From: Escherichia coli
GTDB lineage: Bacteria > Pseudomonadota > Gammaproteobacteria > Enterobacterales > Enterobacteriaceae
NCBI RefSeq assembly: GCF_048403405.1
Contig: NZ_CP183129.1
Direction: 5' to 3' (one strand)
DNA length: 64,000 nt
The number at the start of each line of letters is the position of its first letter. Position 1 is the stretch's first letter. Below are positions 6,439 to 64,000 of the stretch, in pieces. Below the pieces are notes generated by a model. It did no database searches and was not told the origin of the DNA. It was given only the letters and a program-made list of their open reading frames with translations. The position numbers and the translations under genes are program-made.

Positions 6439-6569
6439 CTGCCCGTAATTTGAGCTCGAAATATTTAGTCGTAATTTCACTCGCTGAACTATGGCGCAAA
6501 TAAAACTGTGCTATTGTAATCATAACCATTCTCATTTACACTTTGCGCAGAATTTGAACGGGAGCAATC

Positions 6570-6764
6570 ATGTACGTTTGTTTGTGTAATGGTGTAAGTG
6601 ACAAAAAAATTCGCCAGGCAGTCCGTCAGTTTCATCCGCAATCTTTCCAACAATTGCGTAAGTTTATTCCTGTGGGAAATCAATGCGGTAAGTGCATTCG
6701 CGCCGCGCGCGAAGTGATGCAGGACGAGTTGATGCAGATGCCAGAATTTAAAGAGATTGCCTGA
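6570..6764 (+). CDS. bfd: bacterioferritin-associated ferredoxin
   Basis: 64 aa MYVCLCNGVSDKKIRQAV... with Cys ligands for [2Fe-2S]. Confidence 0.93.
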   Translation: MYVCLCNGVSDKKIRQAVRQFHPQSFQQLRKFIPVGNQCGKCIRAAREVMQDELMQMPEFKEIA

Positions 6765-6836
6765 AGCCCACGCTTATTTTTTGACATCCCGCTAGCCCCA
6801 TCTACGCTCTAATAGTGGAAGCGGAGGGACTATAAA

Positions 6837-7313
6837 ATGAAAGGTGATGTTAAAATCATAAATTATCTCAATAAACTATTGGGAAATGAGCTTGTCGCAA
6901 TCAATCAGTATTTTCTCCATGCCCGGATGTTTAAAAACTGGGGCCTGATGCGTCTCAATGACGTCGAATACCATGAATCTATCGATGAGATGAAACACGC
7001 TGATAAATATATCGAGCGTATTTTGTTTTTAGAAGGAATCCCCAACTTACAGGATTTAGGCAAACTGGGGATTGGTGAAGATGTCGAGGAGATGCTGCAA
7101 TCCGACCTGCGATTAGAACTGGAAGGCGCTAAGGATCTCCGTGAGGCTATCGCGTATGCCGACAGCGTTCATGACTATGTTAGCCGTGATATGATGATCG
7201 AGATCCTTGCCGATGAAGAAGGTCATATTGACTGGCTCGAAACTGAGCTGGATCTCATCGGTAAAATCGGTCTACAAAATTACCTGCAATCACAAATAAA
7301 AGTTAAAGATTAA
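6837..7313 (+). CDS. bfr: bacterioferritin
   Basis: 158 aa [37 protein letters not shown]... Confidence 0.96.
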
Positions 7314-7777
7314 CGGCCTGCCAGCAAACTATCCCAGCCTACAACGAAACCCGCAGCCGCCAGAAATGGCCCAAACGGCAGCGGGTTTTTTAATGACTCT
7401 TTTCCTCTCATGAGCAGACCAATAACTACGGCTCCGCAAGCGAATGAGGCAGCAAGGAAAACCAGTCGTGGCAAGAAGGTCCATGTATGCCAGGCACCAA
7501 GGGCGGCGAGAAACTTCACATCACCATAGCCTAATCCTTCTTTATGACGCAGTATGCGATACCCCCAGTAAATGACAGCGAATGTGCCGTAACCAATAAT
7601 CGCCCCCCATAACGCATCGGCTAAACCGTCAGGATTACAAACCTGATAGAACAAAAGACCTGACCAGAGTAACGGGCACGTAAATCTGTCAGGTAACAAG
7701 CCATGCTTTGCATCCCAGAAAAAAAGTAGGGCTGATAAACAAGCGTACAAAATCAGAAAGGGAAGGGTAGCGTCCAT
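7310..7777 (-). CDS. prepilin (type IV leader) peptidase A24 family, apparently N-terminally truncated (GspO/HofD-like remnant)
   Basis: 155 aa with the C-terminal A24 membrane domain motifs ([33 protein letters not shown]) but lacking the N-terminal Cys-rich domain; full-length homologs are ~225 aa. Confidence 0.6.
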
Positions 7778-7939
7778 AAAACATCCTCTGTAATTGGAGT
7801 ATCACCATCGAATAACTCCGGATGCTCAGCAACAGAGAAATCGCTGATTTGTTAACCTGGTTCCGGTGAAAAACGCTATCTTCACAACTTTACAAATTTC
7901 GTGGAATACAGCTCGCAATCTGCGCGTTGCGATTAATTT

Positions 7940-8467
<528 letters not shown>

Positions 8468-56491: not shown

Positions 56492-57001
56492 TCAAAGCAT
56501 TGTTAACAAGGCGGACGCACCAGCACCAACGAGACTGGCTACCGTACTATTATTTAGTAAATCCTTAAGCAAATTTTTTGCCTGAGGATCTTGTGATTGA
56601 GAAACTTTTTCAACAAGTTCAGTTATGCTGAGATTTACAATAAGATTGTTATGCTCACCGAGTTGAACCTGTGTACCGGATATGTTACCAATGTTAAATG
56701 TATTTTGGCTAGATTGTTTTGGTTTATGTTCATTAGCAGTCAGATTCTCGACTTTTAATGTAAGCATGTGAGGGTGATTAGTACCAACATTGAGTGTACC
56801 TCCTGGTAAAAATGACATATCAATTACTTTTAATATTATTTCCCCCTTCCCTAGTTTTTGAGTGATTTCATCTCCAATATTAATATCTGGTTCTTCAGTA
56901 TAAGGGATTAGCACTTTTTTTTCAGCTGAGTTTCTTTTCCCCTTGTATTCAACTCCTGCGATTGTGAATTTTTCTGGATATGCCATGACGTTAAGATCCA
57001 T
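56492..57001 (-). CDS. hypothetical cargo protein B (shared C-terminal module, hydrophobic C-terminal tail)
   Basis: 169 aa in markedly AT-rich DNA; C-terminus QNTFNIGNISGTQVQLGEHNNLIVNLSITELVEK...AKNLLKDLLNNSTVASLVGAGASALLTML parallels the C-terminus of the upstream gene. Confidence 0.7.
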   Translation of the reverse strand: MDLNVMAYPEKFTIAGVEYKGKRNSAEKKVLIPYTEEPDINIGDEITQKLGKGEIILKVIDMSFLPGGTLNVGTNHPHMLTLKVENLTANEHKPKQSSQNTFNIGNISGTQVQLGEHNNLIVNLSITELVEKVSQSQDPQAKNLLKDLLNNSTVASLVGAGASALLTML

Positions 57002-57030: not shown

Positions 57031-57807
57031 TTAACTAGTAGATTTGAAAGTGTATTTTGTCTGTGTGTTAAGGTTTGATATTAGAGCTTCATAGTTTTCT
57101 TTACTCAGTAAGTTTTTTGAGTAGGCCTTCTTAAGAAGGTTTTTTGAGAGAGTAATAATTTCTTTTTCACCAGTTGATGCAATTTTTGAGAAGAACTCAG
57201 AGAGCTCTTGTATATTAATATTGTTATTTGTACCAAGTTGTACGTATTGGCTATTTACAGTAGCTATGTTGAATATGTTTTGTTTTGGATGCGTTTTTTT
57301 TAGCTTTTCAATTTCAGCATGTTCTATGATTTTTTGAGAGATACTTTCAATATAACCACTAACGTCTTTTTTTTCTGGGAAGGAAAACCCATCACCTCTT
57401 AATATTTTATCTGTTTCGGCCATTTCATAGTAAAGCCTGCGAATCATCACAAGTAATAGTAATTTAGCCTCCTCGATTGACTCCTCTATTGAGAATTGAC
57501 ATTCAATTGCTAACGCGGAGGTCTGCTCTAAAACAATTTCTGAGTTATTTTCAATGTAAGGATTGATAAAACCATTCCAAAAAATTTGAACGGGAGTACC
57601 TTTAAATGCCAAACCTTGATAGCATATTTCTGTTCCATCATATGCAGTAACTTTCATGGGGGGGCCTGCATTGAAAAATCGCCATCTATGAATCAGTTTG
57701 GTTAATCTTTCGTCAATCTCCCGAACTAATTTATAAGTCCTTTTGAACAATGGGGATGGTCGCATCCCAGGAACAGCAAGAATTTCTTTTGTCACTTGAA
57801 TCTCCAT
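57031..57807 (-). CDS. hypothetical cargo protein A (shared C-terminal module)
   Basis: 258 aa uninterrupted ORF in AT-rich DNA (unlikely by chance); 29 bp upstream of protein B on the same strand; C-terminus QNIFNIATVNSQYVQLGTNNNINIQELSEFF...SKNLLKKAY. Confidence 0.7.
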   Translation of the reverse strand: MEIQVTKEILAVPGMRPSPLFKRTYKLVREIDERLTKLIHRWRFFNAGPPMKVTAYDGTEICYQGLAFKGTPVQIFWNGFINPYIENNSEIVLEQTSALAIECQFSIEESIEEAKLLLLVMIRRLYYEMAETDKILRGDGFSFPEKKDVSGYIESISQKIIEHAEIEKLKKTHPKQNIFNIATVNSQYVQLGTNNNINIQELSEFFSKIASTGEKEIITLSKNLLKKAYSKNLLSKENYEALISNLNTQTKYTFKSTS

Positions 57808-61055: not shown

Positions 61056-61350
61056 AGCCAGAATTACACCTGATGAAGTCAGGGCACATCTTCGACTTGA
61101 TGATGATTTATCCGGTGAAGGCGAACTTCTGAAAATGTATACCGATGCGGCGCTGGAAGCCTGCCAGAAGCATATCGGGAAACGTTTTGAAGACGGGCTG
61201 GAATTTACCCCGGCAATGCGTGTTGGTTGCCTGATGTACATCGCTTTCCTGTACGAGAACCGGGAAGCGGTTTCACCAGTGGAGCACTCGGAACTGCCTA
61301 TGGCTATTTCTGCGCTCTGGTCAGTTTATCGTGACGTAGGGGTGTACTGA
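61048..61350 (+). CDS. head-tail connector (gp6-like) protein
   Basis: ORF 60961-61350; start at MSEARITPDEVRAHLRLDDDLSGEGELLKMYTDAALEACQKHIGKRFE... overlapping portal stop; ~100 aa. Confidence 0.7.
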   Translation: MSEARITPDEVRAHLRLDDDLSGEGELLKMYTDAALEACQKHIGKRFEDGLEFTPAMRVGCLMYIAFLYENREAVSPVEHSELPMAISALWSVYRDVGVY

Positions 61351-61790
61351 TGCCGTGGCAACCATTAAGGCGATGCACTGAGCCTGGCTGTAATAAGCGC
61401 GTGAAGTCCGGCAAGTGTGAAGAGCACAGGCGGGCTGCATGGCGTGCAGAGGATGCCAGACGGGGACACCGCCGCGCGCGCGGGTATTCCCGACAGTGGG
61501 ACAAATACCGCGCCCTGTACCTGAGCAAAAACCCGTTATGCGTGCGTTGTCTGGCTAAGGGGATTTATACGCCAGCTCTTGTGGTGGATCACATCATTCC
61601 CATCAATGGCGGCGGTGATGTTCTCTTCTGGCCTGAGTGGAATCACCAGGCATTGTGCCAGACGTGCCACAACCGTAAGACGACACGGGAAGATCCAGCC
61701 ACGAAAGCAAACCGTAAAGCGGGCATGTATCACGAGCAGGAAGAACGGGCGGCACACCGTAACGACTGGATGTATGGCGATGATGACTGA
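61350..61790 (+). CDS. HNH endonuclease (terminase-associated)
   Basis: 146 aa; Cys-rich with HNH core (VVDHIIPINGGGD...NHQALCQTCHNRKT); sits immediately upstream of terS as in cos-packaging HK97-like phages. Confidence 0.85.
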   Translation: MPWQPLRRCTEPGCNKRVKSGKCEEHRRAAWRAEDARRGHRRARGYSRQWDKYRALYLSKNPLCVRCLAKGIYTPALVVDHIIPINGGGDVLFWPEWNHQALCQTCHNRKTTREDPATKANRKAGMYHEQEERAAHRNDWMYGDDD

Positions 61791-62078
61791 ACAGGAGCAA
61801 ACCAGGCTGATACGTGGACTGATAAGGCAGCGTGACACATGGAAGACACAGGAGACAGAGCACAAAGCCAACAGGACAGGGCGCACAAAACTCACCACAG
61901 CGAAGCGATTAACCGACCGTGACCGCGAGGTCATGGAATGTTTTCGCAATCGCTGGTGAGGCCGTCAGAGGGGGTGGGGGTGGTTTTCAGGACGAAACCG
62001 TCCCTGCCGGACACCGACCGCCCCCTCAAATTTTTGTGCACGGTAATTTTTTTGAAAATAATTGGGCGAAAAAAGAAC

Positions 62079-62435
62079 ATGGCAAGACCACCAAAAGCCC
62101 CCGCTTACCTGGATGAAATCGCGGTCAGGCAGTGGAAGGAAAAATCGCGCCAGCTTTCCGGGCGGGAAGACCTTACCCCCGCCGACTGGAGCAATCTGGA
62201 ACTGTATTGTGTTAACTACTCCATATACCGCAAAGCCGTCGAAGACCTTGCGACGCGCGGGTTCAGCATTGTTAACAGTCAGGGCAGCGAGAGCAGAAAC
62301 CCCGCACTGAGCGCAAAGGCTGACGCAGAAAGAATAATGATCAAAATGGCTTCTTTGCTGGGTTTTGACCCGGTAAGCCGTCGCAGAAATCCACCGGAAA
62401 CAGAGGAAGAGGACGAACTTGACCGCCTGGCATGA
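62079..62435 (+). CDS. terS: terminase small subunit (P27-like)
   Basis: ORF 61938-62435; start at MARPPKAPAYLDEIAVRQWKEKSRQLSGREDLTPADWSNLELYCVNYSIYRKAVEDL... Confidence 0.8.
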   Translation: MARPPKAPAYLDEIAVRQWKEKSRQLSGREDLTPADWSNLELYCVNYSIYRKAVEDLATRGFSIVNSQGSESRNPALSAKADAERIMIKMASLLGFDPVSRRRNPPETEEEDELDRLA

Positions 62436-64000
62436 GTACGCAGAAGGCGTAAAAAACGGCAAAATTACGGCCTGTAAACGACTGAAACAGGCCGTTAAAC
62501 GGTATTTTTCTGACCTTGAAAACTCCCTTTACACGTTCGATCCGGAGGTCGTGGAGCGGTTTATTGCCTTTTCCCGGGTGTGTCCGCACGTAAAAGGCGC
62601 AATGCGCGGTAGTCCCATTGAACTGGAGCCGTGGCAGCAGTTCGCCTTTGCCTGCATCCTGGGCTTTAAGGTTAAGGCCACCGGACGGCGCAAATACACC
62701 AGCGCATTCATTGAAGTACCGCGAAAAAATGCCAAATCCACGGTCGCCGCTATCCTGGCTAACTGGTTTCTGGTTATGGAAAACGGGCAGCAGGATATTT
62801 ACACCGCCGCCGTGAGTCGTGATCAGGCGCGGATCGTGTTTGATGATGCGCGTCAGATGTGCCTTTTATCCCGACCGTTACGAAAGCGGGTAAATATTCA
62901 GGCACACAAGGTGATACACCCGAAAACTAACAGCCTGTTAAAGCCACTGGCAGCAAAAGCGGCAACCATTGAAGGTACAAATCCGAGTCTTGCCATTGTG
63001 GATGAATATCACCTGCACCCTGACAACGGGGTTTATTCCGCACTTGAGCTGGGGATGGGGGCGCGTCCGGAGGGGCTGTTATTTGCCATCACCACATCGG
63101 GGAGCAACGTTGTTTCAGCCTGTAAACAACACTATGACTATTGCTGTCAGATACTGGATGGTGAAGAGATGAACGAATCCATGTTCGTTCTGATTTACGA
63201 GCTGGATGATGAAAGCGAGGTTGACGATCCGGCCATGTGGATAAAGGCGAATCCAAATATCGATGTTTCCGTCGATCGTGAAAAACTGGCCTCAACCATC
63301 CAGAAAGCGCGGGGTATTCCGTCGCAGTGGGTGGAAATGCTCACCAAGCGATTCAATATCTGGTGTCAGGGGGCTACGCCGTGGATGGGTAACGGTGCAT
63401 GGGCGGAGTGCGCCGGAACGTTCGCGGAGGCGGATTTATACGGGCAGGAGTGCTACGCGGGACTGGACTTATCATCAACCAGCGATATTTCCAGCGTGTG
63501 CTATGCCTTTCCGGTCGGTAAAAAGATTATGCTGGTTTCCCGTCACTATCTGCCGGAATTTCAGCTACAGAACCCCGCCAATAAAAACCGCGCCATCTAT
63601 CGCCAGTGGGTAAAGGCGGGCTGGATACGCACAACACCGGGTGACTGCATTGATTATGACCGTATCCGTGATGACATCATGGCGGATGCAGAGAATTTCA
63701 ATATCAGGCTGGTGGGCTTCGATACATGGAACGCCACGCACCTGAGGACGCAGCTACAGGGGGCAGGATTTGAGGTGGAGCCGTTCCCGCAAACATACCT
63801 TCGTTTCAGTCCGGCGGCGAAATCGTTCGAAGTTTTTGTTAACCGGAAGGTGATTGTGCATCGTGGTGATCCGGTGCTGGCCTGGTCAATGAGTAATGTT
63901 GTGATGCAGAGTGACGCGAACGCCAATATCAAGCCGAACAAGAAAAAATCATCCAACAAGATAGACCCGAGCGTTGCGGCGCTGATGGCGTTTGGCACAT
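62419..64000 (+). CDS. terL: terminase large subunit (partial; runs off window end)
   Basis: Open frame from a TTG at 62419 to the window end with no stop (hence absent from the ORF track); hand translation TAWHEYAEGVKNGKITACKRLKQAVKRYFSDL...AILANWFLVMENGQQDIYTAAVSRDQAR...LAIVDEYHLHPDNG shows terminase ATPase features. Confidence 0.75.
   Translation, partial: MTAWHEYAEGVKNGKITACKRLKQAVKRYFSDLENSLYTFDPEVVERFIAFSRVCPHVKGAMRGSPIELEPWQQFAFACILGFKVKATGRRKYTSAFIEVPRKNAKSTVAAILANWFLVMENGQQDIYTAAVSRDQARIVFDDARQMCLLSRPLRKRVNIQAHKVIHPKTNSLLKPLAAKAATIEGTNPSLAIVDEYHLHPDNGVYSALELGMGARPEGLLFAITTSGSNVVSACKQHYDYCCQILDGEEMNESMFVLIYELDDESEVDDPAMWIKANPNIDVSVDREKLASTIQKARGIPSQWVEMLTKRFNIWCQGATPWMGNGAWAECAGTFAEADLYGQECYAGLDLSSTSDISSVCYAFPVGKKIMLVSRHYLPEFQLQNPANKNRAIYRQWVKAGWIRTTPGDCIDYDRIRDDIMADAENFNIRLVGFDTWNATHLRTQLQGAGFEVEPFPQTYLRFSPAAKSFEVFVNRKVIVHRGDPVLAWSMSNVVMQSDANANIKPNKKKSSNKIDPSVAALMAFGT

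Follow-up and report, generated by a model that had tools for sequence, protein, structure and literature searches.

Terminase genes of a capsid-forming island

The window, i.e. the whole stretch of 64,000 nt analysed here, is a piece of an Escherichia coli chromosome. It carries ribosomal-protein operons, an rRNA operon, acrEF, IS1 and yhdJ, and next to these an island whose end adjoins fis. The island, lying between yhdJ and fis, measures about 14.3 kb from int to its last ORF, and its genes are arranged in the order int, alpA, primase, capsid, protease, portal, connector, hnh, terS and terL. The left end encodes a tyrosine integrase (PF00589 and PF13356), an AlpA regulator (PF05930) and a D5-type primase (D5_N and Pox_D5). 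The head genes correspond to an HK97-fold capsid protein (PF05065), an S78 prohead protease (PF04586), a portal protein (PF04860) and a gp6-like connector (PF05135), which is the only head-tail connector identified in the island. The gene upstream of terS contains an HNH domain according to Pfam. Between yhdJ and fis, the RefSeq feature table lists no tail or lysis genes. Three hypothetical ORFs of the island had no Pfam or PADLOC match.

Judged from its gene content, the island is a capsid-forming PICI (cf-PICI), a phage satellite. The position of hnh, terS and terL after the capsid, protease, portal and connector genes is the order found in proteobacterial cf-PICIs (10.1101/2022.09.08.507074; PMC10085698). 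The prototype of these elements, EcCIEDL933, has been mobilised experimentally (10.1101/2022.09.08.507074), and its induction by a helper phage that also supplies the tails, and its packaging into small capsids encoded by the island, are described in the literature. The present island agrees with EcCIEDL933 in its gene set and gene order, including the hnh-terS-terL packaging module, in having no tail or lysis genes and in its size (10.1101/2022.09.08.507074; PMC10085698). The likeness between the two elements covers the core genes, the present island having its own location beside yhdJ and fis. The cf-PICI papers on EcCIEDL933 do not discuss the start codon of terL.

The two terminase genes are adjacent, with terS directly 5′ of terL (Table 1). 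TerS matched PF05119 (Terminase_4, P27) with 83.4 bits against a gathering cut-off of 24.7; its gene begins with the ATG at 62079 and ends with the TGA at 62433-62435, and the protein ends with ...EEEDELDRLA*. TerL contained a PF03354 ATPase domain (residues 71-242; E = 4.5e-26, 92.1 bits, gathering cut-off 23.7) and a PF20441 RNase H-like nuclease domain (residues 252-526; E = 1.8e-51, 175.5 bits, cut-off 24), and a Walker A-like motif, RKNAKST, is visible in the translation. HK97 gp2 (PDB 6Z6D), the large terminase of that phage, belongs to the same two-domain fold family of ATPase and nuclease (PF03354 and PF20441) and was aligned with query residues 46-541 (E = 2.3e-43). The full terL CDS occupies 6520-8181 of the fetched RefSeq locus, and its last base is equivalent to position 64080 of the window.

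Table 1 Features of the terS/terL junction and their positions in the window.
Feature	Position	Strand	Evidence or remark
Small-subunit gene terS (P27 family; 118 aa)	62079-62435	+	PF05119, E = 1.6e-23; RefSeq CDS WP_001353110.1, identical coordinates
TAA closing the terL frame upstream	62374-62376	+	Sequence and translation
Purine tract AGAGGAAGAGGA, acidic TerS tail codons and terL Shine-Dalgarno sequence	62402-62413	+	Anti-SD duplex, conservation
terL start codon TTG	62419-62421	+	RefSeq start; 28/28 TTG-type loci; ATG aligned in 57 other loci
terS/terL dual-coding overlap, 17 nt	62419-62435	+	terS ..L D R L A *; terL M T A W H E
Large-subunit gene terL (553 codons, 527 of them inside the window)	62419-64000, runs off the window end	+	Pfam, HK97 alignment, RefSeq
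ATG overlapping the terS stop as ATGA	62432-62434	+	Out of frame: ATG AGT ACG CAG AAG GCG TAA
In-frame GTG, codon 45, rejected alternative start	62551-62553	+	GGAGG only 2 nt upstream

An earlier note on this DNA had pointed out that no in-frame ATG lies between the stop at 62374-62376 and the first terminase residues, and that TTG 62419 is the only start candidate. Both statements were confirmed by reading the sequence directly. The 14 codons that follow the TAA, AVAEIHRKQRKRTN, contain no ATG, GTG or TTG, and the TTG is directly followed by TAWHEYAEGVKNGKI..., which encodes TAWHEYAEGV, the conserved N-terminus of TerL. The stop codon of terS is made from terL codons 5 and 6 (CAT GAG); in all the TTG-type loci described below, the terS stop arises in the same manner from these two codons (NNT followed by GAN or AAN). 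Upstream of the TTG, a near-cognate ATC at 62389 is in frame, but it has no Shine-Dalgarno sequence and is not kept in relatives. The ATG at 62432, which overlaps the terS stop in the way expected of a coupled start, was rejected: it lies in the third frame, opens an ORF of six codons, has no Shine-Dalgarno sequence and is not conserved in relatives. This ATG is a decoy and not the terL start.

Position of the terL start among relatives

TTG 62419 is the start of WP_000127868.1 (553 aa) in the RefSeq/PGAP annotation. This protein, named 'terminase large subunit' (e.g. NZ_CP103479.1, 574189-575850), shows no difference from the gene in the window: its sequence is identical, it starts with TTG, and its gene overlaps a P27-family terS by 17 nt. 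The PGAP annotation is automatic and gives no reason for the start codon. The locus was found in 531 of 5,426 complete E. coli genomes, of which 527 cover at least 80% of the query. Seven independent complete genomes were 100% identical across the 2,101-nt query, and complete genomes that come from different laboratories and hosts share one and the same junction sequence. A TTG start with the 17-nt overlap was present in all nine of the DNA-closest records that we fetched (seven further E. coli loci and two from a phage collection), and remained unchanged in the seven E. coli loci at 78-94% identity. RefSeq calls the TTG start in eight of the eight fetched E. coli records, namely the 100%-identical one and the seven diverged ones. 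The depositor of vB_KppS-Ant, a genome obtained from an induced lysate, also annotates a TTG start with a 17-nt overlap, and a Klebsiella phage record has the TTG and the overlap as in the window. The phage collection search gave two near matches only, one of them probably a satellite genome and the other a doubtful 106-kb record, and no characterised phage with this terL was found in it.

To place these loci among more distant relatives, we compared 88 loci, comprising 80 from contigs of one genome per species and the eight loci fetched from E. coli and phage records. The codon aligned with TerL residue 1 was TTG in 28 loci, ATG in 57 and another codon in three. Among the 80 species-level loci, 57 had ATG and 20 had TTG; the remaining three, all from Pasteurellaceae, were shifted and had their ATG at a distance of one to three codons. 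TTG loci belonged to Orbaceae and to Enterobacterales outside Morganellaceae, which form two deep clades on a neighbour-joining (NJ) tree, and ATG loci belonged to Morganellaceae and Pasteurellaceae. In about 120 homologues, gene calling had placed the N-terminus (M[TNS]xW..YA) at the aligned residue, as was the case for nearly all homologous proteins of Enterobacterales and Pasteurellaceae. In relatives, the stop that closes the terL frame upstream lies 1-45 codons before codon 1, commonly 8-27. The comparison with homologous terL starts, which the earlier note had proposed as a check, therefore gave the same protein position with either TTG or ATG. The predicted start position of TerL is thus conserved across the family, and the codon alone varies.

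The TTG start with its 17-nt overlap, as described in the earlier note, is hence upheld by comparative evidence and by the RefSeq/PGAP annotation. The label "non-canonical" attached to it there was overstated, because TTG is a standard minority start codon of bacteria. The TTG at 62419 is a conserved and ordinary start that is already in RefSeq, and it leaves the understanding of terminases and satellites unchanged.

The first part of TerL is maintained as protein sequence. Over codons 7-45, the entropies at codon positions 1, 2 and 3 were 0.64, 0.48 and 1.22 in the 88 loci, which is a coding periodicity, and residues Y7, A8, G14, C19, Q24, Y29, D32, L33, D41 and V45 were invariant among relatives of 68-100% identity. 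Since codons 7-45 are under protein-level selection, translation must begin upstream of codon 7, where TTG is the only NTG available. In an AlphaFold model, residues 1-90 had block-mean pLDDT values of 77-89, with a first helix from residue 3; this model is mediocre overall (mean pLDDT of 61, from a shallow alignment of 17 sequences) and was used for the N-terminal 90 residues only. Of the first 45 residues found here, about 30 have no counterpart in HK97 TerL, and the region beginning at the TTG is, on sequence grounds, a lineage-specific N-terminal extension. No protein-level or ribosome-profiling data on the TerL N-terminus or start codon were found in the cf-PICI literature searched. For cloning or expressing a cf-PICI TerL, the construct should begin at the TTG; the first 45 residues form this extension, which is conserved.

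A start further downstream, at GTG 62551, GTG 62578 or ATG 62602, would give a TerL of about the HK97 length and leave the stretch before it untranslated. Such a start would agree with the HK97 alignment, which begins only at query residue 46, with the GGAGG near GTG 62551 (duplex of -8.9 kcal/mol) and with one GenBank record that annotates an internal ATG. We consider it very improbable, because the strong third-position variation and many invariant residues of codons 7-45 speak for their translation, each of the three starts would drop conserved residues, and residues 1-90 fold confidently in the model. GTG 62551 was specifically rejected on account of this selection, of the 2-nt spacing to the GGAGG and of the variation among relatives in the sequence that encodes the GGAGG. 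As to the GenBank record (PQ569648), its terL begins at an ATG that is codon 112, past the RKNAKST motif, and its terS is omitted. This start is a misannotation. A gene caller that overlooks the TTG yields a truncated terminase, as in PQ569648, and the main importance of the TTG start is for annotation quality.

Many chromosomal phage-like islands are defective, and the true start of terL could have been lost in a decaying remnant in which the gene is silent and the TTG incidental. This, too, is hardly probable. None of the cf-PICI core genes identified in the window is disrupted, and terL is a full-length ORF of 553 codons under purifying selection. The close TTG-type relative vB_KppS-Ant was deposited as the phage genome of an induced prophage. 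E. coli O157:H7 genomes contain a locus of 90% identity in which the TTG is retained. EcCIEDL933, the cf-PICI prototype, was mobilised in experiments (10.1101/2022.09.08.507074).

Dual coding of the start codon and ribosome binding

Read in the frame of terS, the junction is GAA CTT GAC CGC CTG GCA TGA (E L D R L A *), and the TTG is composed of positions 2 and 3 of the TerS leucine codon CTT and position 1 of the aspartate codon GAC. The bases TTG ACC GCC TGG thus take part in the TerS codons for L-D-R-L and at once form the TerL codons for M-T-A-W. In relatives, too, the TT of the TTG falls on the last two positions of a Leu/Ile codon that is conserved in TerS. An ATG at that site would change the TerS leucine to His, Asn, Asp or Tyr, and a GTG would change it to Arg, Ser, Gly or Cys. 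TTG is the sole start codon compatible with Leu or Ile in TerS. The terL start is therefore TTG and not ATG because the same bases encode a hydrophobic residue of TerS, and the junction is a tidy example of overlapping frames that dictate the choice of a start codon.

The coding of TerS is a partial confounder of TTG conservation, and only the third base of the Leu/Ile codon separates the two constraints. This base is otherwise free, as any CTN encodes Leu, and tests selection on the start codon itself. It was T in all 27 scorable TTG-type loci (CTT in 25 and ATT in two), against three of 59 loci with the terL start elsewhere, in which the codon was TTA (27), CTA (13), CTG (9) or others (Fisher's exact test: p = 2.5e-19, kinship among loci being ignored). 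After dereplication, the counts were 24 of 24 and 3 of 52 (p = 8e-17, again with kinship ignored). Neighbouring synonymous sites vary within the two TTG clades.

Within the purine tract of Table 1, the proximal GAGGA (62409-62413) stands 5 nt before the TTG. The anti-SD duplex at the TTG was calculated as -6.2 kcal/mol, the third best among the 26 NTG triplets of positions 62000-62700. GAGGA or AGGAGG was found 5-9 nt upstream of the TTG in 27 of 27 TTG-type loci; in ATG-type loci, GAGGA was absent within range or 15 nt away.

The late operon of the island is compact, with five of its seven junctions being tight (gaps of 1, -8, -1, -17 and -17 nt) and the other two measuring 54 and 119 nt; terL is the sole gene with a non-ATG start among its eight genes. 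Coupled late genes of phages are typically packed in this way. The terS/terL pair has the layout of a coupled pair, i.e. an overlap on the same strand, a TTG 14 nt before the terS stop and a Shine-Dalgarno sequence inside terS. No occluding RNA structure was predicted around the start (62380-62470; MFE of -17.1 kcal/mol, z = -0.31). A scan of 61300-62700 revealed no promoter-like site on the plus strand, neither between terS and terL nor elsewhere in this region, and the terminator scan of the same region gave weak terminator-like hits near shuffle expectation. There is no structure for terS translation to melt, and any coupling would therefore be one without a structural signature. Translational coupling of terL to terS is plausible, as it fits this anatomy. 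Given the good Shine-Dalgarno sequence, coupling may also be unnecessary, and that sequence alone might suffice.

Our main reading, to which we assign a probability of about 0.88, is that terL is translated from TTG 62419 with GAGGA as its Shine-Dalgarno sequence, and that the TTG is forced by the coding of TerS. According to this reading, the ribosome would be placed at the TTG by the GAGGA within the codons of the acidic TerS tail, ribosomes ending terS 14 nt downstream may help to load the TTG, and the weak TTG start may hold the amount of TerL below that of TerS.

A TerS-TerL fusion protein could instead be produced by a programmed +1 frameshift at CUU-G (62418-62421), in the manner of prfB and with the GAGGA as an upstream stimulator. 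The prfB frameshift site is AGGGGG-UAU-CUU-UGA-C, which GAGGA-CGAA-CUU-GAC resembles; the reading frame of terL, which is +1 with respect to that of terS, has 14 open codons before the TTG. A prfB-like slippery site, in which CUU precedes a stop or a slowly decoded codon, was nevertheless not found, because the next codon, GAC, is neither a stop nor rare, which leaves nothing to pause the ribosome. Re-pairing of the leucine tRNA from CUU to UUG would also be poor. The fusion frame is not open and conserved in relatives: many ATG-type loci of Pasteurellaceae have an in-frame stop 1-4 codons before the start, so a fusion is not a feature of the family. As a well-spaced Shine-Dalgarno sequence and a start codon account for the data without a frameshift, we regard the fusion as very improbable and initiation at the TTG as the better explanation.

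Overlap of terminase subunit genes on the same strand has long been known, for example for Nu1 and A of phage lambda. Nu1 (191-736) and A (711-2636) overlap by 26 nt, and the start and ribosome-binding site of A lie within the Nu1 coding region, as those of terL lie within terS here. The lambda gene A starts with ATG, and the lambda terminase proteins belong to other families than the present ones. What is added here is the dual-coding reason for the TTG, the misannotation of PQ569648 and the 10-nt relation to ATG-type junctions.

The 10-nt difference between the two junction types

A MAFFT alignment separated the two junction types by one clean gap of 10 nt, CGCCT[ATGAACGCAT]GG. The ATG type reads ...GACGARYTRGAYCGNCT[ATGAACGCAT]GGGAG..., and the TTG type reads ...GACGARCTTGACCGCCT, ten gap positions and GGCAT.... 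In ATG-start relatives, the junction is 10 nt longer, and the genes overlap by ATGA or not at all. The cf-PICI-like loci of Proteus, Xenorhabdus, Photorhabdus and Lonepinella have a homologous TerS tail (..EEDELDRL), a TerL N-terminus of MNAW..YA and the same start position. ATGA-type loci of these genera differ from the window by the additional 10 nt, by an ATG that overlaps the terS stop by 4 nt, and by a GAGGA located 15 nt upstream, which is too far for a Shine-Dalgarno role.

Homologues with an ATG that is missing here through an indel, which the earlier note had set as grounds for refutation, thus do exist in Morganellaceae and some Pasteurellaceae, but the 10-nt indel is an evolutionary one and not an error; in the protein, the ATG of the relatives and the TTG stand for one and the same residue, so the start position is confirmed rather than refuted. 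A sequencing or assembly indel concealing an ordinary ATG in this record, the alternative offered in the earlier note, would fit the 10 extra ATG-containing junction bases of these relatives and can be dismissed with near certainty, because independent genomes share the identical junction (100% over 2,101 nt in the seven genomes, in addition to the 527 genomes with at least 80% query coverage), at least 14 genera are fixed for the TTG form, which persists to about 70% TerL identity, and the terL ORF of 553 codons is intact.

When TTGACCGCCT was duplicated in silico, the result was a terS ending with ...DELDRL* and a TTGA overlap, which is the ATGA-type layout. This duplicated junction was identical in 31 of 41 nt to the junctions of Proteus, Xenorhabdus and Photorhabdus. 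For this reason, we favour a duplication, with the TTG form being the older one, over a deletion; the ATG form would then descend from the TTG form, with TTGACCGCCT duplicated in tandem. Parsimony on the NJ tree is ambiguous, as either direction of the 10-nt indel costs two changes.

These observations suggest a tentative model of a toggle between two modes of terL initiation, to which we would give slightly less than even odds. An overlapped terL would be locked to TTG by the TerS leucine and served by a good Shine-Dalgarno sequence, and the 10-nt duplication would free the start to become ATG, with coupling by ATGA. One step, the tandem duplication of TTGACCGCCT, would both part the two genes and put the Shine-Dalgarno sequence out of range, and initiation would afterwards rely on stop-start coupling at ATGA. 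If this model is true, related satellites set the TerL:TerS ratio in two different ways.

The satellite island and its surroundings

A capsid-forming phage-inducible chromosomal island (cf-PICI), a phage satellite of about 14.3 kb, takes up the entire right end of the window; it is inserted between yhdJ and fis and runs approximately 370 nt past the window end. Three of its ORFs were scanned against Pfam and PADLOC, and none (0/3) was matched. The two on the minus strand sit between the replication and capsid modules, a stretch that is a frequent place for accessory cargo in satellites. Just left of the insertion region, an IS1 transposase gene was also found.

Features of the cf-PICI and its left neighbourhood (window positions)
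Feature	Position	Strand	Size	Remark
IS1 transposase	47836-48533 (record 559605-560302)			between acrS and yhdU
cf-PICI	50056-64000			gene order int, AlpA, Icd-like, D5 primase, capsid, protease, portal, connector, HNH, terS, terL
Island ORF	51276-52013	plus	245 aa	no Pfam or PADLOC match
Island ORF	56492-57001	minus	169 aa	no Pfam or PADLOC match
Island ORF	57031-57795	minus	254 aa	no Pfam or PADLOC match
HNH-orf61 overlap	61774-61790		17 nt	same length as the terS-terL overlap; orf61 start is ATG
orf61	61774-61959		61 aa	no Pfam match
orf61-terS gap	61960-62078		119 nt	contains conserved block
Conserved block	61970-61993

A candidate packaging end upstream of terS

The block in the gap between orf61 and terS reads GGGGTGGGGG(N2-3)GTTTTCAGGAC and is kept in relatives whose identity is 78-100%. 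In vB_KppS-Ant, an induced-lysate phage genome carrying a close relative of the locus, the linear record has its last bases precisely at ...GTTTTCAGGAC and begins again 22 nt upstream of terS, which suggests a packaging (cos) end near window position 61993.

Start of terL in related loci

A few of the related loci in which terL begins with TTG (L028, L034, L060 and L077, from Pantoea, Hafnia, Serratia and Gilliamella) carry an additional in-frame ATG 2-5 codons 5' of the conserved TTG. This ATG arose from altered acidic-tail codons (GAGGAAGAC to GAGGATGAC or GATGAG), and the gene-called TerL of these loci is therefore 555-558 aa long.

A terS-terL pair of this island's type was also observed in the 106.5-kb "phage" record of Klebsiella phage P12620-1 (GenBank PQ569648; positions 3340-5001 of L003). 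In this record, terS is not annotated and the terL annotation begins at an internal ATG (codon 112), past the Walker A-like motif; the terL ORF that starts at the TTG is nevertheless intact, with 553 codons. Such a record could be a chimera, or it could carry a satellite.
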